Shown here piece after piece: positions 38,075 through 52,520 of a stretch of DNA of 64,000 bases (its first letter is position 1; the number at the start of each line of letters is the position of its first letter). The notes under the pieces are model-generated. The model was given only the letters and a program-made list of their open reading frames with translations. It was not told the DNA's origin and made no database searches. The stretch spans positions 4,800,001-4,864,000 of the forward strand of contig OZ242358.1 of the NCBI GenBank assembly GCA_965208835.1, in the 5' to 3' direction. Both the position numbers and the translations under genes were made by a program. This stretch comes from Candidatus Latescibacterota bacterium. GTDB lineage: Bacteria > Latescibacterota > UBA2968 > GCA-2709665.

Positions 38075-39622
38075 TCACGTCTCCTTTTCGTCTCGTGAAC
38101 GGTCGGGAAACAGAAGAGAGCCGAGAACCATCAGGACGAGCGCCAGAACGGTCACCCCCAGGCCGATGTGCGCACCGGTGAAGGCGTCCAGACCCAGTGC
38201 CCTTTTCACCGGAGTCAGGCCGGTAACGGCAGCGGCGCCGGCCACAAGGGCGAGGTACGCCCCGGCGGTGCTGGCGCGCTTCCAGTAGAGGCCGGTGAGA
38301 AGCAGGGCGAACGCGCCCGTGAAGTAGATGGCGCCGCTCACGAGCATGTAGTCCCAGAGGTCCTGACCGAGCTCGTACCAGAGCCCCCACACAAGCAGAA
38401 AGGCACCGATGACAAATATAAAGATCCGGGAGAGCGTCAGGCGCGCGCGCGTGGAAAGGGTATCGCCGGTGGCGGGGGCGACCACGTCGTGCGTGAGCAC
38501 AGAGGACCAGCAAAGCAGGTAGCTGTCGTGGGTGGACATGAATGCGGCAAGCAGCCCCGCGCCTATCAGACCAATCAGACCTGCGGGCAGGATCTGGCTG
38601 AGGAAGACGGGCATGGCCATAAGGGTCAGGTCGGCGTTCCCCGTGGGTGCGCCGGCGGCGGAGAAGAAGACCGAACGGGTCACATCGTTCTGGTAGAGAT
38701 AGACAAGGGCGCAGATTCCCAGAAACTGGGGCACCATGAATCGAACGAGGAATCCGATGGCCGACCAGGCGTAGAGTTTTTTCACCACCGAGGTACTCTC
38801 GGCGGCGCATGCTCTCATGACAGCGGTCTGCCACACGGCGCAGGAGACGATCCCGGCAGTGAAGATCATCCAGACGACGTACGACGGTCCGAACCCACCC
38901 CCCGCGTGAAGTGGATCGAACCCGGGCTCGCCGTGAATTGACGCAACCGTATCCACGATCGCCGACCAGCCAAGCCTGTCCACGGCGATACCGCAGGTGA
39001 CGATAACGCCCACGGAAAGCACGATAAACTGGATGTAGTCGGTGAGCACAACCGAGACCATGCCCCCGAGAATGGTATATATCAGAACCAGCAGGAGCAT
39101 CACGGTCATGATCAGGCCGACCGACGTGGGGTTTGTGATACCGGTCAGGCCCGCAACAAAGATCGCGCCCGCTTTGAGGAACAGACCCATATTGAGGATC
39201 CCGGAAAGGGCGAGAAGCAGGCCGCCGAAGATGCGGACGCCCCGGCTGAAGCGCTTTTCGTAGAACTCGGGAATCGTCATCACGCCCAATTCGCGAAGCG
39301 GGACCACGATGAACCCGGTCAGGCCGATGATCAGAGTCACAATGCCTGCGATGAGACCGATGTGAAAGGCGGCGAACCCGCCCGTGAATCCCTTCTGGGC
39401 GGAATACATGACCGTCACGAGCCCCAGTTCGCTGCCGATCATGGTGGCGACGGCGAGATACGGTTTCAACGAACGGCCGGCGACGATATAGTCGCTCATG
39501 TTGCGAATGTAACGGTTGGCGTACAGACCGATCGCAACCGTGCCCAGCATATACAGGCCGACAATCGCCCAATCGATTGCGCCGAAGTTGGAACTGATGC
39601 TGTTCAGGAGATCGGATGACAT
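38075..39622 (-). CDS. Sodium:solute symporter family protein
   Basis: DYIVAGR, TIPEFYEKRF, GGMVSVVLTDYIQF, LAAFMST; many TM helices. Confidence 0.92.
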   Translation of the reverse strand: MSSDLLNSISSNFGAIDWAIVGLYMLGTVAIGLYANRYIRNMSDYIVAGRSLKPYLAVATMIGSELGLVTVMYSAQKGFTGGFAAFHIGLIAGIVTLIIGLTGFIVVPLRELGVMTIPEFYEKRFSRGVRIFGGLLLALSGILNMGLFLKAGAIFVAGLTGITNPTSVGLIMTVMLLLVLIYTILGGMVSVVLTDYIQFIVLSVGVIVTCGIAVDRLGWSAIVDTVASIHGEPGFDPLHAGGGFGPSYVVWMIFTAGIVSCAVWQTAVMRACAAESTSVVKKLYAWSAIGFLVRFMVPQFLGICALVYLYQNDVTRSVFFSAAGAPTGNADLTLMAMPVFLSQILPAGLIGLIGAGLLAAFMSTHDSYLLCWSSVLTHDVVAPATGDTLSTRARLTLSRIFIFVIGAFLLVWGLWYELGQDLWDYMLVSGAIYFTGAFALLLTGLYWKRASTAGAYLALVAGAAAVTGLTPVKRALGLDAFTGAHIGLGVTVLALVLMVLGSLLFPDRSRDEKET

Positions 39623-39682
39623 AGGTGATACCGAGGAAAACCGGAAGCGCGCCCGGCACTTGCCGGGTTCTTTTAAATCAGC

Positions 39683-40300
39683 TTAAGGCCAGGTGGGGCG
39701 TTCCATCGAGAAGGATTCGTTGACGCAGACGTAGTCCAGGTACCCGAGACGCCCCACGGGTCTCAGCGCCACGGTGTCGACGTGGCCATCCTTAATTGCC
39801 CAATCGGCAATGTGGATGCCAACCACATGACCGAAGACAACCGTGTTCGGATCGTCCGGATCGCCCGTGGGCAGTTCCACCGTCCGGGTATGGATACACT
39901 CCAGATGGACCGGGCTTTCCGCCACGCGGGGCGGCTTTACAAGCACCGACGGCGCCTGGGTGACGCCGGCGTATTCGAATTCGTTGACGTGACCCGGGGC
40001 GGGCACGGCAGTGGCGTTCATCTGCGCCCGAAGCTCCCAGGTGGCGAGGTTGACGACGAATTCGCCGGTTTCCTGCGCATTCCTGATCGAATCCTTCAAA
40101 CCGCCATGGCTGTGCGTGGTTGTCGCGGCGAACATGACCTGCGGCGGCACGTAGGCCACCGCGTTGAAGAACGAGTACGGCGCGAGGTTGATCGTACCCT
40201 TTGCGTCCATGGATGAAATCCATCCGATCGGTCGAGGCACGACGATGGCGTTGAATGGATCCCGGGGCAGTCCGTGGCCATCCGACGTCCTGTAAAACAT
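39683..40300 (-). CDS. Flavin reductase-like FMN-binding protein
   Basis: VPRPIGWISS, NLAPYSFFN, KDSIRN, GRLG. Confidence 0.88.
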   Translation of the reverse strand: MFYRTSDGHGLPRDPFNAIVVPRPIGWISSMDAKGTINLAPYSFFNAVAYVPPQVMFAATTTHSHGGLKDSIRNAQETGEFVVNLATWELRAQMNATAVPAPGHVNEFEYAGVTQAPSVLVKPPRVAESPVHLECIHTRTVELPTGDPDDPNTVVFGHVVGIHIADWAIKDGHVDTVALRPVGRLGYLDYVCVNESFSMERPTWP

Positions 40301-40350
40301 GTTTGCGGCCTCCCTTTCCGGATGTCAAGCCGCTTTCTTTGCAGCAGGTA

Positions 40351-41352
40351 CTACTTCCACTTGAACACAACGCCCAGCGCATCTGTCGGATCGTCGGCGA
40401 GCATGGTGTAGATCTCCTGGCACTGTTCCGGATCCGCGACGTGGGTGATAAGGTCTTCTACCGGCAATTTGCCCTCGCCCATCAGGCGCATCACCAGCCT
40501 GCGGTCCCGTTCCTTCGCCCATCGGTAGTAAATGTGGTCGGCCTCCGGCGTCTTGGGCTGGTGGGCGCCCAGGATGCTGACTTCCCGCAGATGCACGTCG
40601 GCCAGAAAATCCATGTCGACGGTGCCGCGCGGGGAGCCCAGCGCAACCACACGGCCTGCCGTACACGCGAGCCGGACGGCGGTGGGATACACGGCGGGTT
40701 TGCCGGTCGCTTCGATGACGACGTTGACGCCGTCTTCCACGCAGTATTGTCCGACCGCGTCCCTGACGTCGTCCACGTCACCGGGATTGATACAGACGCC
40801 GGCGCCGCGGCTGCGGGCAATATCCAGGCGAAAAACGTCCAGATCCATGGCGATAACGGGAAGGGCGCCGGAGAGCCGCGCGAGGGTTGCCGCGAACTGA
40901 CCGACAATTCCCAGGCCGATGACGAGGACAACCTCGCCCAGTTCAATGCGCGCCACGCGGACTCCGTGGATGGCGATAGCGCCCATGACCATAAAGGCGG
41001 CGGCCCTGGACGACACGGAATCCGGGACCTTCACGTAGAAGGCCCTCCCGCCGTAGAGAATGCAATGGCTGGCGTGGTTACCCTGGCCGGCGACGCGGTC
41101 GCCCGGGCGGATGCCTTCAACGTCTTTGCCGACTTCCAGCACGGTGCCGACGTTGCAATACCCGGTGGCGCGGGGAAACCTTACGGGATTCCCGGGTTCT
41201 CCGCCGTGGGTCCATCCGTGGATCTCGGTGCCCACGCTGACGGCGGTGTACTCGTTTTCGAGAAGAATGCCGTCATCCGGCAAGGGCCCCGTTTCGAACG
41301 GTGCGACCTCCATCCGTCGAATACCGGGAATCAGGAGACGACTCGCTTTCAT
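40351..41352 (-). CDS. MDR-family dehydrogenase (lacks canonical Zn ligands)
   Basis: SVGTE, GYCNVG, GLGIVG, IEATG. Confidence 0.8.
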   Translation of the reverse strand: MKASRLLIPGIRRMEVAPFETGPLPDDGILLENEYTAVSVGTEIHGWTHGGEPGNPVRFPRATGYCNVGTVLEVGKDVEGIRPGDRVAGQGNHASHCILYGGRAFYVKVPDSVSSRAAAFMVMGAIAIHGVRVARIELGEVVLVIGLGIVGQFAATLARLSGALPVIAMDLDVFRLDIARSRGAGVCINPGDVDDVRDAVGQYCVEDGVNVVIEATGKPAVYPTAVRLACTAGRVVALGSPRGTVDMDFLADVHLREVSILGAHQPKTPEADHIYYRWAKERDRRLVMRLMGEGKLPVEDLITHVADPEQCQEIYTMLADDPTDALGVVFKWK

Positions 41353-41438
41353 CTGTATGTCCTTTCGGGTGCTTGAAGACCGGCAGGTACCCGTATCAGC
41401 AGCGGATGCAGGTACCAGCCAGGGGCCGGGCGCGGTCT

Positions 41439-42476
41439 CTACGCCTGCCCGCGGTCCAGGGTTTGACGGAAGAGCCGAAGGAAGTTCCCTCCCCATACCT
41501 TTCGGATTTCTTCCTCGGCGAGGCCGCGAGCGAGCATGGCGCGGGTGAGGCGCACAAGCTTCGAGACATCCCCGAAAACAGGCGTCTTTGAACCCATGCC
41601 GTCGTAATCGGAACCGACGCCGACATGGTCGATGCCGACCAGGTCCGCCACGTGGCAGATATGGTCGACCATCCGGTCCACGGAAGGATTCTCCGGATCG
41701 ATAAACCCCGGGAGAAACGCGATGCCCATCACCCCGCCGACCCCGGCCAGCGCCCTGAGCTGATCGTCGGTCAGGCAGCGCCAGTGGTTGCAGACGGAGA
41801 AGGCCGCGGTGTGGGTCATCGTCACCGGGAGCGAAGACCGCTCCAGCACCTGGTAGAAAGCCTTGTCGTTTATATGGGCCAGGTCCGTGATGATGCCCAG
41901 CCGGTTGCTCTCCTCGAGTACGGACCTCCCGAAGTCCGTCAACCCGACGGCATTTCTGCGTTCGCGGTCGCGGTCTACAGGCGTGCACGGCCCGAAAGAA
42001 CTCCTGCTGCCCTGCAGCAGCGACGGGTCGTCGCCACCTTCGCCGTGGGTGATTCCGATACACCGAACTCCCAGACGGTAGTAGAGACGCAGTGTATCCA
42101 TTTCGCCTTCCAGCCAGCGTCCGGCGCCTTCGATAGTGAGCAGGATCCCGATTTTTCCGGATGTTCTTGCCCGTTCAACATCCCGTGACGAGAACACCAG
42201 CATCAGGTCGTCGGGATAAAGCTCCACCGACGCCAGGGTCTGCTCCAGGGTAACCCTGACGTTCGCCGTGGGCCCGTTACCGACCACGAAGAAGCCGGCG
42301 TCGAACCCGCCTTCCCGCATCCGCGGAATGTCCATGTGATACGCGAGGTCCCGTCTTTTCAGGTCCATGGGACGATCGCCCCGGTGTACGTGCTCCACCG
42401 GCGTGTCGTTGTGGCCGTCGACGATAAGGCAGCGGTCGTGTACCGCCTGCGCTTCTTCAAGGGTGATTTCCGGCAT
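41439..42476 (-). CDS. Membrane dipeptidase (peptidase M19)
   Basis: DGHND, IEG, DLAH, THT, VGSDYDG, GGNFLR. Confidence 0.9.
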   Translation of the reverse strand: MPEITLEEAQAVHDRCLIVDGHNDTPVEHVHRGDRPMDLKRRDLAYHMDIPRMREGGFDAGFFVVGNGPTANVRVTLEQTLASVELYPDDLMLVFSSRDVERARTSGKIGILLTIEGAGRWLEGEMDTLRLYYRLGVRCIGITHGEGGDDPSLLQGSRSSFGPCTPVDRDRERRNAVGLTDFGRSVLEESNRLGIITDLAHINDKAFYQVLERSSLPVTMTHTAAFSVCNHWRCLTDDQLRALAGVGGVMGIAFLPGFIDPENPSVDRMVDHICHVADLVGIDHVGVGSDYDGMGSKTPVFGDVSKLVRLTRAMLARGLAEEEIRKVWGGNFLRLFRQTLDRGQA

Positions 42477-42537
42477 GTGGTTTATCCTGGGCTGAGTGGT
42501 GGCTTCGCAGAACGGATGGATGGGTCTTGCACGTGCG

Positions 42538-43860
42538 CTACGGCGGATCGACGGGTACTTTCTGTCTCTTGCTGACCAGCGGATCGTATGTAAATCCGTC
42601 GGCGCGTTTTTCGAACTCCGCGCGCGCTTTTTTCAATTTCTCCGGGTCCCGGCACAGGTCGACAGCGCTCCCTGCGAAGACTTTGGCTGTCTGACGGACC
42701 GCGCGCTCGGCAAAGGGCAGGGCGGCCTGCGCAGCCATGTCCCGGTGGTGGCCTGGGGTTCCCTTCGCATAACAGACCATCTCGAAGCGTCCCAGAGGGG
42801 CCAGCCAGGATACGTTATCCTCGTCCGTAGATCCCCTGCCCTGCGAGCCGCTGCCCTTGGCGATCTTCGTGTTGAATCCCTTCTTGTAGCCGAGGGCTTC
42901 GGCGTGCTTCACGTCGGCTTCCGTCGGCTTGGGAGGCCCGAAAAGCTTGAGGTTCTTGCGGACGATCTCACACATCGCCTTGTTCGGCAGACGCGGGTAC
43001 ACGGCGGTGATTCGCGACCATTTCATCTTCGTATCCGTCGCCCTGGCGGCGCCCCGGGCGCAGGCGGTGAGGCGTTCACGCACTTCGTCGACCTGCGCGC
43101 GGTCCTTGCCTCGAACGAAGTACCAGATCTTGGCATAGGCCGGCACCACGTTGGGTGCGTCGCCTCCATCGCGGATCACGGAGTGGATCCTGACGTTTTC
43201 GGGGACATGCTCCCGGAGATAGTTGGCGGCGATATCCGTGAGCATCACCCCGTCCAGCGCGCTGCGGCCCCGGTGGGCCGACGCGCCGTGGGCGGTACGG
43301 CCGAAGAACTCATAGACGAGGGAGTCCAGCGACGACCCGCCGAAGTTGTTGACGCCCGAAGCATCGTCCGGATGCCACGCAAGGCAGACGTCCAGGTCCC
43401 GGATGGCGCCGTCGCGGGCCATGTACACTTTGCCTCCCAGGGTTTCCTCCGCCGGACAGCCATAATAGACGATCTTGCCCGGTGTTCCGGTTGATTCGAG
43501 GACTTTCGCAGCGGCGACCGCACCCACGGCCGGGGCAACGCCCAAGAGGTTGTGACCTCAGCCGTGACCCCATTGACCTTCTTCGGGGCCGCAGTTGGGC
43601 AGCGCGTCGTACTCCCCCAGCAGTCCGACCGCCGGTTCTCCGGTTCCCCTGGTAGCGCGAAATGCTGTGGGAATTTTCTTGAAAGGGAATTCGACCTCGA
43701 AGCCCCGTGAGGTCAGGTATTCCCCGATAGCCCGGGAGGACTTGACCTCGCGGAAGGGCCGCTCCGCCCAGCCGTGCACCTTCCTCGAAAGTACCCTTGC
43801 CCGTTTCGACTCGGCGGCGACGGCGCGGTTAACGAGACGCTTCTTTTCTTTTCCGGTCAT
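42538..43860 (-). CDS. AbgB-like M20 amidohydrolase with in-frame TGA at codon 101 (putative selenocysteine)
   Basis: Two in-frame ORFs join as GEYDAL...GHG-TGA-GHNLLG; GCPAEE, WHP, GRSALD, GSTD; 440 aa if read through. Confidence 0.85.
43513..43542 (-). promoter_or_regulatory. Candidate bacterial SECIS element
   Basis: GGCG-UUGC-CCC-[GGCCGU]-GGG-U-GCGG-U-CGCC hairpin starting 16 nt after the UGA; folded by hand. Confidence 0.55.
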
Positions 43861-43967
43861 GTGAAATCTCTCTTGTGAACACCCGGATTCGCGAACGATC
43901 GGGTTGACGAAATCTCTCGTCGAGCGTACCGGCTCGAACACTTTCCCGGGTAATCAATCGATGGTTT

Positions 43968-45056
43968 CTACGGATGAACGATGGCATCCACGACCGCGTC
44001 GCCCACCCCGGTTGTCCCGGCGGCGCCTCCGAGATCGGCCGGGTGGTTCTTCGGATTCTCCAGCGCCCGATCGACGGCGCGGTCGATTGTGTCAGAGGCG
44101 GCGATGGCCTCCTGATCCTCATGGCGGGCGCCCAGCCAGGACAGCATCATCCCGGCGGAGAGGATCTGGGCCATGGGGTTGGCGATACCGTTCCCGGCGA
44201 TATCCGGCGCGGTGCCGTGGGATGGCTGGAAGACGCCGTAACGGTCGCCGACGTCGGCCGAGGGCGCCATCCCCATGCCGCCGATGGTTGCGGCGGCCAG
44301 GTCCGAGATGATGTCGCCGAACATATTCTCGGCGACGACGACGTCGTACCAGGAGGGGTTGCGCAACTGGTACACGGTAAACGCGTCCACATAGGCATAA
44401 TCCCGTTCGACGTCGGGATAGGATTCCGCGACCTCGTCGTAGATCTGTCTGAAAAACGCCATGCTCTTCAGAATGTTGGCCTTGTCGACGGAGGTGACGC
44501 GGCTCCTGCCGTCGGCGGGCGCCCCCTTCCGCTGCTTTGCGATTTCAAAGGCGTATCTGACGATCCGCTCGGTACCGGCGCGGGTGATGACCATGTTATC
44601 CACGGCAAGGCTGTCTCCAAGCCGGACCCCGGCGCCGCGGGAGGCGTAGAGGCCCTCGGTATTCTCACGCAGGATAACGTAGTCGAGCGGCGGATTCCCG
44701 TCCAGAAGCGGCGGCACGCCATGATATTTCTTGATTGGCCTGATCCCGGCGTAGAGGTCCAGTTCAAAGCGCAGCGTCAGTTGCGGCGCGATTTCAGTAC
44801 CGTCGGGGAAGCGGATGTCCGGGTCGCCGGCGGAACCAAAAAACACGGCGTCGGCCGCCTTGCAGGCGTCGAGCGTGGCTTTCGGGAGATCTTCTCCGGT
44901 TTCCGCGTAACACCCGGCGCCGACCGGATGCTCGGAGAAGGTGAAACGAAGATCGGGATGCGGCTCCTCGAGCGCCAGAAGCACTTTGAGCGCTTCCGCG
45001 ACGACTTCCGGGCCGACGCCGTCTCCTGGGAGTACGGCGATGTTGTACGTGGGCAT
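43968..45056 (-). CDS. Isocitrate/isopropylmalate/tartrate dehydrogenase family protein
   Basis: LPGDGVGPEV, RENTEGLY, DKANIL, NMFGDIISD, HGTAPDIAG..ANP. Confidence 0.9.
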   Translation of the reverse strand: MPTYNIAVLPGDGVGPEVVAEALKVLLALEEPHPDLRFTFSEHPVGAGCYAETGEDLPKATLDACKAADAVFFGSAGDPDIRFPDGTEIAPQLTLRFELDLYAGIRPIKKYHGVPPLLDGNPPLDYVILRENTEGLYASRGAGVRLGDSLAVDNMVITRAGTERIVRYAFEIAKQRKGAPADGRSRVTSVDKANILKSMAFFRQIYDEVAESYPDVERDYAYVDAFTVYQLRNPSWYDVVVAENMFGDIISDLAAATIGGMGMAPSADVGDRYGVFQPSHGTAPDIAGNGIANPMAQILSAGMMLSWLGARHEDQEAIAASDTIDRAVDRALENPKNHPADLGGAAGTTGVGDAVVDAIVHP

Positions 45057-45080
45057 GCACGTCCTTTCTGGATTTGTGGA

Positions 45081-46235
45081 TCAGCGGGATCGCTGGCGAT
45101 CATCGATGCTGACACGGAATCCGCCCTCCGACTTCACGCCCCGTTCCAGCGCGTCCGGTTCGACGTCGAATCCCGCGCCGGGCGTATCGGGCACGATCAG
45201 CCTGCCGTTGCGCATCTGCCATCCGTCCAGGGCGATGCCCGGCAAGTCCGCCGGGGCCGCTTCCAGGAGGCTGTAGTTGGAAATGGAAGCGGCGAAGTGG
45301 GCGTGGGCGTATCGTTCGACGACACTTCCCCAGCAATGAGGGGCGCACTTCGCACCCCAGGGCCCGATTCGGTCCGCGGCGGCTTTCCACCACGTCAGCC
45401 CCTTGTAACGAAAATCGTGCTGCACGATGTCGATCCATCCACTTTCGACCATATCGAAGAAATCGGGCGGAGGCGGCCCGGACTCCCCGTCCGCCACGAG
45501 CGTATTGTAACCCTTCCGGTCAATCGCTTCCTTGAACGCCTCGTTGAACGCCCGGTCTTCCGGGAAGGGCTCTTCGAACCAATAGACTCCGGCGTCCCGG
45601 CAGCGTTCGAGGATGTCCAGCGCGATATTGAGCGTGGTTCCGTTGTTGGCGTCTATAAGGATTTTCGCATCCGGTCCCGCGGCCTCCCGGACCGCGTGGA
45701 TCACCAGCACGTCCCGGTCCGTTCCTTCCCGGACGGGCATCCACCGCGCGCCGCGCCCGATCTTGATTTTGAAATTTCGGTAGCCGTAATCGTGCCCGGT
45801 TCGGACTTCCTCTCGGAAGATCCGCCGCGCCTGGTCGTCGGTGGCTCCCAGATCGTCGATGTAGACGGAGCCGTCGTAGAGTTCGACTTCCCGGGAACCG
45901 CGCGCGCCCAGCAGTCGATAGAGGGGCACGCCTTCACATCTGGCGGCCAGATCCCACAGGGGAAGGTCTATGGCCGCGCCATCGCCGGTTGACCCGACCG
46001 GAAATTGAAAAAGCTCCGGGGGGCGCATTCCGAGAAGTGCTTCGGCGCGCGCCCTGTCAAGGGTAGACCAGCCGATGCCCACGCCGCCGCCAGCGGTGCC
46101 GATGCGCACGACCGGATCGGTGACCGCCGGACCGTGTACGCCGATACGCGCGTTGGATCCGATGTTGCGCGGGCGCGTGCCGTGCAGGACCGCCTTTTCG
46201 ATTATGACGATGGGATCGGAGAATGAGCCGCACAT
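45081..46235 (-). CDS. Mandelate racemase / muconate lactonizing enzyme family protein
   Basis: IDLPLWDL, KIKIG, DAN, EEP, DGE, APH. Confidence 0.85.
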   Translation of the reverse strand: MCGSFSDPIVIIEKAVLHGTRPRNIGSNARIGVHGPAVTDPVVRIGTAGGGVGIGWSTLDRARAEALLGMRPPELFQFPVGSTGDGAAIDLPLWDLAARCEGVPLYRLLGARGSREVELYDGSVYIDDLGATDDQARRIFREEVRTGHDYGYRNFKIKIGRGARWMPVREGTDRDVLVIHAVREAAGPDAKILIDANNGTTLNIALDILERCRDAGVYWFEEPFPEDRAFNEAFKEAIDRKGYNTLVADGESGPPPPDFFDMVESGWIDIVQHDFRYKGLTWWKAAADRIGPWGAKCAPHCWGSVVERYAHAHFAASISNYSLLEAAPADLPGIALDGWQMRNGRLIVPDTPGAGFDVEPDALERGVKSEGGFRVSIDDRQRSR

Positions 46236-50441: not shown

Positions 50442-52520
50442 TCACACGGTACCCAGGCTCTTCAGGATCTTCGCGAAAACGCCGTCGGTATCCGTCTTCA
50501 ACTCGATCTGGGACAGTCGCTCCAGGATCCGCCCTTGCGGATCCACCAAAAAGTACGCCGGTATCCCGCGAACATTGTAGTCGCTGGCTGGTCCGGAACC
50601 GGAGACCCCGGAGCGCACGTGCACGCCTTCGATCCCGTGTTCCTCGATGGCCTTGCGCCATGCCGCCTCGTTCGAATCCAGTGAAAGGTTGAGGAAAACC
50701 ACCGGTAGATCGGTGGTCTTCTTCTTCAATTTCCGGATGTGCGGCAAGTTGGCGATGCAGGGACCGCACCAACTCGCCCAGAAATCCAGCAGCACCACCT
50801 TTCCCCTGAACTGGCTCAAAGACACGGGTTGTCCGTCCAGGTCCCTCAATGTGAAATCCGGCGCCGGACGGCCCGGCCGCAGCGCCATCGCCTTGTCCAG
50901 AGCCGCCAGTACCGCCGCGTTGTATTCCGGATAGGGGTTGGCCGCCTGGAATTCCCTCCACATACGGTTGACGGCCGCAAAGCTCGCCCCTCCGCGCTGA
51001 AAACCGCTGATCAGCTGTCCGGCCAGAAACCAGTATCGCACCCGCCCCTTCAGTTTCTCCTCGGCCAGATCGAACCTGCGTGGAAGTGCCGGTATCGACC
51101 GTCTCTTGATTGCATAGATCGAGTCGAGCTTCGCCTCCATCGCCTGCGACAAACCCAGGCCAGCGAGATCGAGGATTTGAGACAACCTGAGCGGCTGTCG
51201 ATTTTCGTAAAGTGAATCCAGATAGGCGCCATTCTCAGTGGATAGACCCAATCCCGCCAGATCGACCATATCGGACAACTTGCGTTTCCTTTTGAAGGAG
51301 CGCAACCCTTCCATTCCACTCGCGCCATCCTTCGCCGGTAGCCGGAAAACAAGCGCGCCGCTCGTGGTGTCTATCTCGGGCTCTTGGAGTTTGCTTGACG
51401 TGGTAATTCTGTACGATCCATCACTCTTCGCGTAGAAGGAGTCGATCTCTGCCCGGGCCGGTTCCGACAGGCCCATTTTCTCCAGGTCAAACATCTGAGA
51501 AAGGTTGGGTCTCCCTCTGCTGGCGTACAATGAGTCGAGTCTGGTTTCGACCGCGGCTGACAGACCCAACGTTGACAGGTCGATCATCTTCGACAGGCCG
51601 GGATGCCACCCGAACCGCGCATAGAGTGAATCCAGCACGGTGAGAGTCTCCTTCGACAGTTCCAGGCTTGTAAAATCGTACAAGTCCGACAGCGTTTTCG
51701 ACCTGGGCATCTTCATCATTTCCAGATCCATTGTCCTAACCAGGTAGGTTGCATATGGATCCACACCGATCGCCTTCTCGTCCACCAGCGGGATCTGTCT
51801 AAGGAAGTCATAGAATTCAGGTGGGATATTCTTGTTCTCCCGGCCTGTGGCGCGCCGGTAGTTGGCAGAGTATGAGATCTTCAGGAAAGCGTACGTGTAG
51901 TTGAAATAGCGTTCCACATGTTCGATGAATCCCGGCGAGAACGCGTATCTCGTACGTCGCCGGTCCAGGAATTCAAGCTGGTCCGCGCGCCATCCGTCCG
52001 CCAGGCGAGAAAAGTCTTCCGCCTCCATTTCCCTGGAATCCCTGATTTTACGCTGGAATTCCCCGAACCTGGGGTACCACTCGGCAATAAAGCGGCTGTT
52101 GTCCGCATTCCTGCCGCTGAACCGGTAGGAGGTAGAAAGATGGCCGGGATGGATCCTGATATGCAGGCTGTCGCCGGGCTCGACAAACAGCACCAGCGGA
52201 CTGCGTTTGACGACGTACGACGCGGCCTGCCGGGCCCATTTCCACGGGACGCTTCTGCCCTTGTAGCTTCCCCGTACAAGTGTTCCGCGAACAACTGGAA
52301 TCTCCAGCGCGAAGCGGTTCCGGCTGTCCAGGTCAACGCGCTGTTCGGTCTGTCTCCCCAGCGCCGTCGGCGAGTTGTACCTGAACGTGATTTCCCGTGC
52401 GGTCGGGTTCCGGACTTCACCCGTGACAATCGCGACCGACGACTCGCTGCCTTCCGCCGCCGGACCGGCAGTTGACATTGCGAGTATGGTGACGAGGATA
52501 AGTCTGGATATATTCTCCAT
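50442..52520 (-). CDS. Secreted TlpA/ResA-like thiol:disulfide oxidoreductase with internal repeats
   Basis: Signal peptide; C-terminal APDFTL, DFWASWCGPC, YNVRGIP. Confidence 0.85.
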   Translation of the reverse strand: MENISRLILVTILAMSTAGPAAEGSESSVAIVTGEVRNPTAREITFRYNSPTALGRQTEQRVDLDSRNRFALEIPVVRGTLVRGSYKGRSVPWKWARQAASYVVKRSPLVLFVEPGDSLHIRIHPGHLSTSYRFSGRNADNSRFIAEWYPRFGEFQRKIRDSREMEAEDFSRLADGWRADQLEFLDRRRTRYAFSPGFIEHVERYFNYTYAFLKISYSANYRRATGRENKNIPPEFYDFLRQIPLVDEKAIGVDPYATYLVRTMDLEMMKMPRSKTLSDLYDFTSLELSKETLTVLDSLYARFGWHPGLSKMIDLSTLGLSAAVETRLDSLYASRGRPNLSQMFDLEKMGLSEPARAEIDSFYAKSDGSYRITTSSKLQEPEIDTTSGALVFRLPAKDGASGMEGLRSFKRKRKLSDMVDLAGLGLSTENGAYLDSLYENRQPLRLSQILDLAGLGLSQAMEAKLDSIYAIKRRSIPALPRRFDLAEEKLKGRVRYWFLAGQLISGFQRGGASFAAVNRMWREFQAANPYPEYNAAVLAALDKAMALRPGRPAPDFTLRDLDGQPVSLSQFRGKVVLLDFWASWCGPCIANLPHIRKLKKKTTDLPVVFLNLSLDSNEAAWRKAIEEHGIEGVHVRSGVSGSGPASDYNVRGIPAYFLVDPQGRILERLSQIELKTDTDGVFAKILKSLGTV

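Follow-up and report, generated by a model that had tools for sequence, protein, structure and literature searches.

Does the single TGA that interrupts an M20-family gene of a Candidatus Latescibacterota genome act as a stop codon, is it a lesion, or does it encode selenocysteine (Sec), and in the last case, what would selenium be doing in a hydrolase? The gene lies in the window, i.e. the whole stretch of 64,000 nucleotides that was analysed (contig OZ242358.1 of assembly GCA_965208835.1, positions 4,800,001 to 4,864,000), and positions given below, as well as those in the feature table, are counted within it. As we argue here, the product of this gene is highly likely to be a genuine selenoprotein, namely an M20D amidohydrolase in which SelB and a conserved RNA would place Sec at UGA 101 and in which this residue would bridge two metals.

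Features of the M20D locus, in window coordinates
Feature	Position	Strand	Basis or remark
Putative Sec-containing M20D amidohydrolase CDS	42538..43860	(-)	translation with TGA=U; 440 codons + TAG stop 42540-42538
UGA codon 101, proposed selenocysteine codon	43558..43560	(-)	at the metal-bridging Cys position
His103 codon (C/U-x-H motif), putative metal ligand	43552..43554	(-)	invariant; corresponds to N-AGA His-107 (PMC7209930)
Glu138-Glu139 codons (PAEE), putative general base and metal ligand	43444..43449	(-)	N-AGA Glu-140, Glu-141 (PMC7209930)
His163 codon (WHP), putative metal ligand	43372..43374	(-)	N-AGA His-168 (PMC7209930)
His371-His372 codons, one the putative last metal ligand	42745..42750	(-)	N-AGA His-370 (PMC7209930)
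Isocitrate/isopropylmalate/tartrate dehydrogenase family, upstream neighbour	43968..45056	(-)	PF00180, 306 bits
M19 membrane-type dipeptidase, downstream neighbour	41439..42476	(-)	PF01244, 272 bits
Conserved block GGGCGUUGCCCCGGCCGYNGGUGCGGUYG, SECIS candidate	43515..43543	(-)	17-45 nt after the U of UGA
Candidate hairpin H2	43515..43532	(-)	7-bp stem, NGGU apical loop (loop 43525-43522)
Candidate mini-hairpin H4, GGGC-GUU-GCCC	43533..43543	(-)	4-bp stem and triloop
Hairpin H1 of the original prediction, alternative fold of the block	43513..43542	(-)	RNAfold minimum for this genome

The reading frame and its TGA

The original prediction regarded two minus-strand open reading frames (43558-43941 and 42538-43545) as a single frame broken by one TGA, and translation of the region bears this out: 440 codons run from the ATG at 43860 to the TAG at 42540-42538, the sole in-frame TGA is codon 101 (43560-43558) in the context GEYDALPNCGPEEGQWGHG-[TGA]-GHNLLG, and the GCPAEE, WHP, GRSALD and GSTD motifs that had been listed are all found in the frame. 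With TGA translated as Sec (U), the peptide across residue 101 is WGHG-U-GHNLLGVAPAVGAVAAAK. By family profile the product is an M20D/TIGR01891 amidohydrolase or dipeptidase, scoring 183.5 bits against NCBIfam TIGR01891 (cut-off 153.75, residues 25-373) and 29.6 bits against Pfam M20_dimer PF07687 (cut-off 21, residues 184-272), the dimerisation or lid domain that is inserted in the catalytic domain.

The TGA is a stable feature of this gene. Among 61 related genomes it is present in 49 of 52 matches, at an identical column in all 49 TGA-bearing orthologues, and a wider search for homologues with TGA at the equal column, covering 168 genomes of the phylum, found it kept in 55 of 56 orthologues (at least 67% identity), more distant homologues having Cys. 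It occurs in all 24 named close loci and also in 32 metagenome contigs, and the genomes that bear it comprise 55 species-level genomes from three families. That the codon is real in the sequencing data is confirmed by independent assemblies, contigs of four runs from four studies (one of which, X1, may be the source sample) agreeing without difference at 43558-43560. Before the TGA (codons 2-100) the ratio dN/dS is 0.14, and after it (codons 119-440) 0.08, and thus it appears that both flanks of the TGA are translated; other stops or frameshifts were seen in none of the 49 TGA-bearing orthologues. For a nonsense pseudogene, or an error in sequencing or assembly, it can be said that TGA is one base away from TGC or TGT, yet neither would be expected to recur across species-level genomes, metagenome contigs and the contigs of separate runs, with low dN/dS on both sides and without further lesions, and we consider the probability of this explanation next to negligible.

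One may also consider that UGA 101 simply terminates translation, leaving a split gene that yields an N-terminal peptide of 100 residues and, from a start of its own, a C-terminal protein of about 330. Public collections hold 15 shortened calls (294-336 residues) with starts beyond the TGA, among them one called 'peptidase dimerization domain-containing protein [Candidatus Latescibacteria bacterium]', as a split gene would predict. However, these calls start at differing residues (MGAVAAAK, MGTAPAVG, MLGVAPAAG, MQQNKLKGK, MARDGAF), and there is therefore no conserved restart. Moreover, the break would have to fall exactly on an invariant Cys codon, between residues of the ligand motif, in all 55 genomes; the C-terminal piece would be devoid of the C/U-x-H ligands; and neither the conserved block that follows the TGA nor the Sec machinery, both described below, would be accounted for. 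Termination at UGA 101 is, in our view, extremely unlikely.

The block 3' of the TGA and the selenocysteine machinery

Shortly after the TGA, synonymous sites are frozen in codons 107-114, in line with the conservation that one would look for 3' of a Sec codon. Codon entropy at conserved columns of 4-fold or higher degeneracy is 0.10 in these codons as opposed to 1.45 elsewhere, which makes them the lowest-entropy window of the gene (0 of 100000 random draws were as low), and within-genus dS is 0.17 in codons 102-118 versus 0.49-0.64 in the flanks. The corresponding 29-nt block is near-invariant in 60 distinct sequences, and a Cys-type relative (L066) differs across this stretch. We therefore treat the block as a SECIS candidate, in which the exact fold can only be proposed and the hairpin of the original prediction (H1) is one of three options.

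H1 was indeed located where it had been drawn, and RNAfold returns it for a 60-nt stretch of this genome, but it is well formed only in the window's own genus; across the 60 distinct sequences 91.5% of its cells pair, the apical C-G pair being broken in 46 and a second pair in 9. At least as good a match to the conserved block is given by two further folds, the three mutually exclusive structures pairing 99.8%, 97.7% and 91.5% of cells, and the loops of the three alternative hairpins all contain G and lie 21-38 nt after the U. The highest value belongs to H2 together with H4 (660 cells in the 60 distinct sequences). The four pairs of H4 are invariant in 60/60 sequences with a loop that varies (GUU, GUA, ACA), and one pair of the H2/H4 set is GC in 47 sequences, GU in 9, AU in 3 and other in 1. 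In its stem length and GGU-containing loop H2 resembles the selD and fdhA hairpins of the same genome, and the GUU loop of H4, 21-23 nt after the U of UGA, is like the GUU loops of the genome's two SelW-like genes. When the stretch that is folded is 76 nt long and begins upstream of the TGA, the fold is a different one and no better than those of shuffled sequences (z = -0.95). Since the block is almost invariant, covariation is weak, being confined to a compensatory change in one pair, with 14 of 500 shuffles reaching the score; decisive covariation emerged neither from the three structures on 60 sequences nor from RNAalifold on 38. No Rfam family matched the block, apart from chance-level matches to a CRISPR repeat and TLS-PK5 (E-values 2.9 and 5.4).

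The original prediction had also made the reading depend on Sec machinery, and selA (483 bits), selB (361 bits), a tRNA-SeC (tca) gene adjoining selB and a Sec-containing selD are all present in the genome. The selD gene has its own TGA, at CG-U-AAK, and fdhA has one at CSRA-U-H. Of the 55 genomes with the TGA, 54 gave a SelA match; the remaining one is 91% complete and in 430 contigs. No SelA match was obtained in the Cys-type genome G059 or its genus mate, and TGC stands at the column of codon 101 in the closest lineage that lacks such a match.

An alternative to Sec insertion is read-through of UGA 101 by some other tRNA, near-cognate or suppressor (for Trp, Cys, Arg or Gly), the block then being a generic stimulator of read-through. 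Such a scenario gains from the fact that we infer Sec in the protein from sequence, and from the position of the best-paired hairpin, whose GGU loop (H2) is 36 nt downstream of the U of UGA, unlike the 13-25 nt seen in five other selenoprotein genes of the genome. It sits poorly, however, with the invariant Cys in homologues, which is the hallmark of Sec/Cys pairs, with the distribution of SelA among TGA-bearing genomes and the TGC of the nearest lineage that has no SelA match, with tRNA-SeC being the only tRNA with a tca anticodon among 48 tRNA genes (Aragorn), and with the use of TGA as an ordinary stop, in fact the commonest of the genome (it ends 1100 of the 2079 open frames that have 400 codons or more), all of which make read-through of this kind very unlikely. 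UGA 101 is very probably read as Sec, judging from the gene and its relatives and from the ordinary role of TGA elsewhere in the genome. The conserved RNA element would recruit SelB and Sec-tRNA(Sec), and Sec would be inserted at codon 101 in place of termination.

For the selenoproteome of the genome we relied on family searches in place of an ad-hoc scan (TGA, GGU-loop hairpin and high GC3) that gave 182 raw and 21 filtered candidates and was dropped as unreliable, because it missed the M20D and fdhA genes. An AhpC/TSA match with a TGA (G000:C1:433241-433627, FFRGTW-*-RRSRR) had neither a hairpin nor a UxxC-type motif and was not counted as a selenoprotein.

The metal site, related enzymes and gene neighbourhood

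What would a Sec at this position do? The idea that the M20D Cys at this position is a metal ligand agrees with N-AGA (CsAga) of Corynebacterium striatum (MEROPS M20D, PDB 6SLF), where the sulfur of Cys-105 ligates both zincs, together with His-107, Glu-141, His-168 and His-370, as described in PMC7209930. The match of N-AGA to the family profile (E-value 6.1e-10) indicates a distant relationship, and N-AGA has Cys where the present protein has UGA; nevertheless the two share the C/U-x-H ... EE ... H ... H pattern (PMC7209930), which is invariant in the present family. Across 36 homologues the invariant columns are C/U101, H103, E138, E139, W162, H163, P164, H371 and H372. Family alignment and residue spacing thus point to residue 101 as a metal ligand. 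Sec101 would sit where the conserved Cys sulfur bridges two active-site metal ions, the other ligands being His103, Glu139, His163 and either His371 or His372, with Glu138 as general base, and the selenolate would bridge the binuclear centre at which water is activated for hydrolysis of the amide. The original claim that Sec replaces the metal-ligand Cys of a hydrolase is supported from several sides, by the conserved UGA, the Cys homologues, the Sec machinery and the frozen synonymous sites.

The closest solved relatives are HmrA of Staphylococcus aureus (3RAM, E-value 2.5e-40) and the human and mouse PM20D2 Xaa-Arg dipeptidase (7YH4, 8XZC, about 1e-32); HmrA, YxeP (1YSJ) and 6SLF all match the family profile. 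HmrA and PM20D2 resemble the present protein in having both catalytic and dimerisation domains and in a GHACGHN motif that aligns with GHG-U-GHN, but they all have Cys, their identity to it is low and their gene neighbourhood is another one. HmrA-type M20D enzymes have been described as Met-X carboxydipeptidases (PMC9486568).

There are precedents for a Sec that takes over from Cys the direct ligation of a catalytic metal, namely formate dehydrogenase (Mo/W) and the [NiFeSe] hydrogenase (Ni), as summarised in PMC13188914. In contrast to these enzymes, whose metals cycle through redox states, the binuclear centre of M20D activates water without redox change, and Sec in M20D would bridge two metal ions. 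In known selenoproteins, Sec coordinates redox-active metals or carries out thiol-like redox chemistry (2005 Sargasso Sea paper, PMC1088965), and the 'non-redox use of Sec' that had been put forward for this gene would follow by analogy with the enzyme family.

As for the substrate, an operon with an M19 dipeptidase, an MDR and an SSS transporter had been proposed; these three are present and downstream, accompanied by a flavin-reductase-like gene, and the picture needs amending in that the immediate upstream gene is an isocitrate/isopropylmalate-type dehydrogenase. Within about 5 kb the neighbours are MR_MLE, Iso_dh, M19, MDR, flavin reductase and SSS transporter genes. In 20 of 24 named relatives' loci an Iso_dh-type gene lies directly upstream of the M20D gene, and in 15 of 24 the M19 dipeptidase lies downstream. 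The conserved neighbours suggest catabolism of a small peptide or an N-acyl amino acid. The partner genes abgA and abgT define the AbgB system, AbgB being subunit B of p-aminobenzoyl-glutamate hydrolase. Neither abgA (the second M20 subunit) nor abgT (the transporter) is present within about 5 kb of the M20D gene, so that of the double label AbgB/M20D originally given, the M20D part passes the family profile and the AbgB part lacks its partners beside the gene. Some Cys homologues carry the JGI name 'aminobenzoyl-glutamate utilization protein B', and the match to PDB 3IO1 is weaker than that to HmrA.

A Sec/Cys pair and a probable new selenoprotein family

Sec-type and Cys-type proteins share one column, in which we counted 76 unique sequences of the former and 125 of the latter, the residue aligned with codon 101 being Cys in 125/125 Cys-type sequences; the closest Cys form has 76% identity to the Sec form. 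In a tree, the Sec forms make up a single clade nested among Cys forms, with Cys as the root state, and six Cys-type metagenome proteins nest within the Sec clade. Because of these six, the M20D enzyme appears to work without Sec, i.e. Sec is dispensable.

In Table 1 of a 2026 review (PMC13188914), which lists 119 prokaryotic selenoprotein families, there is no M20, peptidase or amidohydrolase entry and no mention of PF01546, PF07687 or TIGR01891, in keeping with the original statement that the protein falls outside the classical families; the same table served to cover the families of Haft & Gwadz 2023 and Haft & Tolstoy 2025. The main text of that review nowhere uses the words peptidase, hydrolase, amidohydrolase or M20. 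Literature searches found no M20 or peptidase selenoprotein, nor did the main texts of GOS 2008, ISME J 2016 and BSepDB contain one, although the supplementary tables, including BSepDB's 111 families, could list one. Other hydrolase-fold bacterial selenoproteins in Table 1 of the review are likewise computational predictions outside the thioredoxin-fold redox set, but their folds and families are others, and no clan MH/M20 metallopeptidase is among those listed there (PMC13188914).

A new selenoprotein family is thus a well-supported conclusion. With moderate confidence, we would go further and see in it the first selenoprotein family in metallopeptidase clan MH, in which a selenolate would replace the thiolate that bridges a binuclear hydrolytic metal centre, a non-redox use of Sec that is structural and electronic. 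Joined to this reading, and held with the same reserve, is the suggestion of a single origin of Sec from Cys, in Latescibacterota that are marine and in part sponge-associated, with retention across at least three families.

Selenium may here affect which metals are preferred, Lewis acidity or how well the enzyme resists oxidative inactivation: if the Sec reading is true, it could retune metal choice or Lewis acidity, and in oxic habitats it could keep the bridging ligand from being oxidised irreversibly. A hydrolase with Sec as the bridge between its metals would also add to the kinds of chemistry that cells find worth the expense of UGA recoding, and Sec/Cys pairs at 76% identity offer a natural experiment on selenium at a non-redox metal site. 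In public annotation the Sec M20D genes are mis-called as shortened proteins, and for this reason selenoproteome surveys built on known families would miss them. Latescibacterota of marine and sponge metagenomes would then be keeping a conserved, lineage-specific recoding element.

A TGA codon within an M20D amidohydrolase gene

On translation, the two open reading frames that the original prediction had joined across a TGA proved to be halves of a single M20D frame, which runs on the minus strand from an ATG at 43860 to a TAG at 42540-42538 (440 codons) and is interrupted only once, by the TGA at 43560-43558 (codon 101, in the context GEYDALPNCGPEEGQWGHG-[TGA]-GHNLLGVAPAVGAV). The read-through protein scores 183.5 bits against the NCBIfam model TIGR01891 "amidohydrolase" (cut-off 153.75; residues 25-373) and carries the M20 dimerisation domain of Pfam. 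Among solved structures, the nearest are those of S. aureus HmrA (3RAM, E 2.5e-40), whose GHACGHN aligns with GHG-U-GHN here (U being the proposed selenocysteine, Sec), the PM20D2 Xaa-Arg dipeptidase (7YH4 and 8XZC) and Arabidopsis ILL2 (1XMB), and the family profile also matches YxeP (1YSJ), 4EWT, N-acyl-glutamine aminoacylase (6SLF) and the AbgB-like 3IO1. We consider this very probably a genuine, conserved selenoprotein gene, in which Sec would be inserted at the TGA.

An alternative explanation is that the TGA reflects a sequencing error or a pseudogene. Among 61 related genomes, 52 had a match (E <= 1e-30), 49 of these with exactly one internal TGA (identity 67%-100%), and the column was identical in all 49 loci (WGHG-*-GHNLLG). 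When all 168 genomes examined for the phylum were considered, 80 had a match (E <= 1e-40); copies of at least 67% identity carried TGA in 55 of 56 cases and TGC in one (genome G059), while the weaker matches (36-45% identity) had no stop in 27 of 27. On named contigs, TGA was found in 24/24 loci of close relatives (titles Candidatus Latescibacterota, some Gemmatimonadota or "uncultured bacterium"), and 20 loci at 35-37% identity (titles Blastocatellia, Acidobacteriota or Aminicenantes) had TGC (19) or TGT (1). A codon-pattern search of metagenomes added 32 stretches encoding W-G-H-G-TGA-G-H-N, all with the frame open on both sides. Contigs from four runs of four studies (one labelled sponge metagenome and one marine metagenome) cover 43558-43560 with zero differences at the TGA and vary at nearby synonymous sites, e.g. 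43545, 43546 and 43555; one run, X1, is identical to the window and may be its source sample. The checks that had been proposed in sequencing data and in homologues bear the TGA out. Within the genus, dN/dS was 0.14 before the TGA (codons 2-100) and 0.08 after it (codons 119-440; Nei-Gojobori counts, 105 pairs), with similar values between families (35 pairs), which means that both sides of the TGA are translated. Given the sharing of the TGA across genomes, metagenomes and four runs, and these dN/dS values, error and pseudogene were both rejected. Reassignment of TGA was likewise rejected, since 1100 of the genome's 2079 stop-to-stop frames that are 400 codons or longer end in this codon, as do two neighbouring genes.

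The 49 Sec-type genes themselves (L017-L065; 42538-42540 in the window) end in TAG (38) or TAA (11) and never in TGA, in contrast to 53% of the long open frames of the genome and to the Cys-type locus L066, which ends in TGA. Since the sequences are related, this may reflect inheritance rather than avoidance. The labels of these MAGs conflict: among near-identical contigs (93-98% protein identity), several bear the title "Gemmatimonadota bacterium" and others "Candidatus Latescibacterota bacterium".

Selenocysteine machinery and the block 3' of the TGA

The genome, a single 5.18 Mb contig, contains all of the machinery that the original prediction had proposed looking for: selA (483 bits on PF03841; E 3.7e-169 on TIGR00474), selB immediately downstream (361 bits, cut-off 242), an adjoining tRNA-SeC (selC, anticodon tca) and selD (359 bits). 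SelA (TIGR00474, E <= 1e-60) was detected in 131/168 genomes of the phylum and in 54 of the 55 with a TGA-bearing M20D gene, the exception (G032) being 91% complete in 430 contigs. No SelA match at this threshold was found in G059 or its genus mate, an absence not proven because these genomes are 86% and 90% complete. Several other genes carry a TGA followed by a simple hairpin (see table); that of selD is a perfect 7-bp stem beginning 13 nt after the U of the UGA, and that of the fdhA-like gene also has 7 bp. A further AhpC/TSA match with TGA (contig positions 433241-433627) is doubtful as a selenoprotein, having neither hairpin nor redox motif. Within the window, 50526-50876 (minus strand) encodes an AhpC/TSA and thioredoxin-like domain with zero internal stops, inside a 710-residue open frame.

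Features of the M20D neighbourhood (window positions) and of TGA-containing genes outside the window (positions on the whole contig); loop distance is that of the first loop base from the U of the UGA
Feature	Position	Strand	Remarks
Enolase-superfamily protein (MR_MLE)	45081-46235	-	first in order
Iso_dh-family dehydrogenase	43968-45056	-	between enolase-type and M20D genes
M19 dipeptidase	41439-42476	-	next after M20D gene
MDR dehydrogenase	about 40351-41400	-	after M19 dipeptidase
Flavin-reductase-like protein	39683-40300	-	after MDR dehydrogenase
SSS transporter	38075-39622	-	after flavin-reductase-like gene
selD (L013)	4401300-4402223	+	TGA at classical CG-U-AAK site (ARTCG-U-AAKISPVG); loop GGUC, 20 nt
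fdhA-like molybdopterin enzyme (formate-dehydrogenase-like; L113)	2632877-2633935	+	TGA at CSRA-U-HAP; loop GGUCU, 21 nt
Prx-like	2175427-2175765	-	U-P-T-C; likely selenoprotein gene; loop GGCG, 13 nt
SelW/Rdx-like	1297536-1297754	-	CAAU; likely selenoprotein gene; loop GUU, 25 nt
SelW/Rdx-like	4003183-4003395	-	CARU; likely selenoprotein gene; loop GUU, 25 nt

We examined codon entropy in the 167 columns where a 4- or 6-fold degenerate residue was common to at least 45 of the 49 sequences. Codons 107-114 form the lowest-entropy window of the gene (mean 0.10 bits in 7 columns, versus 1.45 bits outside), and none of 100000 random draws was equally low. Just one further column falls below 0.2, namely Gly100 (43561-43563, minus strand), directly 5' of the UGA, which is GGC in 48/49 orthologues (entropy 0.14); its codon would pair in H3, a fold that includes the UGA, but 3 of 60 wider sequences have G or A at this position. 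Among these 60 distinct 63-nt segments, out of 105 collected, a near-invariant block, GGGCGUUGCCCCGGCCGYNGGUGCGGUYG, lies 17-45 nt after the U of the UGA (window 43543-43515). The codons right after the TGA and those past the block vary freely, and L066 differs in sequence across the region.

This block admits three mutually exclusive folds. The first, H4 + H2, is a GGGC-GUU-GCCC mini-hairpin with a 7-bp stem, capped by an NGGU loop, immediately after it, and pairs 99.8% of 660 cells in the 60 sequences; one pair occurs as GC 47, GU 9, AU 3 and other 1, and H4 has a constant stem below three variable loop bases. The long stem H3, which is the choice of RNAalifold, pairs 97.7% of cells, with one pair broken in 13/60. 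The hairpin originally proposed, H1, pairs 91.5%; its apical pair is broken in 46/60 and another in 9/60, and energy minimisation favours it mainly in the genus of the window. The SECIS-like element of the original prediction was thus placed within what is a conserved block, and its particular stem is one of three candidates. Bacterial SECIS loops have a conserved G, and a GU in the loop is contacted by SelB. The GUU loop of H4, at 21-23 nt after the U, agrees with the loop spacing of the genome's other selenoprotein genes, whereas the GGU of H2 (36-38 nt) is farther out; the GG of H1 is at 29-30. Strong covariation was sought in all three folds and not found in the 60 sequences, the H4 + H2 score being reached by 14 of 500 shuffles. 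In view of this and of the differing loop spacing, it is the block as a whole that we regard as the SECIS candidate.

Residue 101 and the selenocysteine and cysteine forms

In N-AGA (6SLF, also M20D), the Cys-105 sulfur binds both zinc ions, together with His-107, Glu-141, His-168 and His-370 (PMC7209930), a point about the Cys that a passage of a review echoes (PMC11511702). Invariant columns in 36 M20D homologues include C101, H103, E138, E139, H163, H371 and H372, in the same order and spacing as these ligands, and 6SLF matches the family profile. From this we infer that residue 101 is the metal-bridging ligand, which would here be a selenolate.

By homology, Sec would thus occupy a metal-bridging position in an enzyme family that is not among the catalogued selenoprotein families. 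In agreement with the original prediction of a gene outside the classical families, M20 peptidases or amidohydrolases are absent from Table 1 of a 2026 review (119 prokaryotic selenoprotein families/subfamilies with domain identifiers), where UshA-like proteins and a CTP-synthase-related glutamine amidotransferase are nearest in spirit. The main texts of that review, BSepDB 2026, GOS 2008 and the ISME J 2016 survey contain none of the words peptidase, hydrolase, amidohydrolase or M20. Full-text searches of the literature, covering main texts, found no report of an M20 selenoprotein, though an earlier listing elsewhere is possible, and NCBIfam has no model specific to the protein.

Among the database matches listed, every full-length homologue (about 440 residues, at most 76% identical) has Cys in this position. 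Annotated as amidohydrolase or "aminobenzoyl-glutamate utilization protein B", these proteins come from Planctomycetota, Kiritimatiellia, Chthoniobacteraceae and Phycisphaerae. At least 15 of the 120 matches listed are shortened calls of 294-336 residues, whose starts vary, just past the TGA (public records P0015, P0043, P0053, P0055, P0075, P0085 and others), one piece being annotated in an NCBI MAG as "peptidase dimerization domain-containing protein". This is a systematic mis-annotation of the Sec-type family.

In a tree of 201 unique sequences (76 Sec-type, 125 Cys-type; FastTree LG+gamma, rooted on the Acidobacteriota group; partial sequences, i.e. loci products < 400 and database proteins < 420 residues, excluded), a single clade of 82 tips holds all Sec forms and six nested Cys-type metagenome proteins. 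The G059 copy belongs to a Cys clade of eight members that branches just outside it. With Cys at the root and five parsimony changes, the simplest reading is one change from Cys to Sec and a few later reversions, whose count is uncertain because internal supports are often low.

Gene neighbourhood

The M19 dipeptidase, MDR and SSS transporter genes named in the original prediction all lie downstream on the minus strand, and the gene immediately upstream, to be added to that list, is Iso_dh; membership in AbgB is unsupported by the neighbours. Of 24 loci in named relatives, 20 have Iso_dh directly upstream of M20D, 20 an MDR match downstream and 15 M19 downstream, and the four f3-type loci have a different context. 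These conserved neighbours suggest that the enzyme takes part in breaking down a small peptide or N-acyl amino acid. The order MR_MLE, Iso_dh, M20D, M19, MDR, flavin reductase-like is conserved across the window's family (38075-46235; loci L069-L092), and the Iso_dh-M20D-MDR core reaches into a second family.
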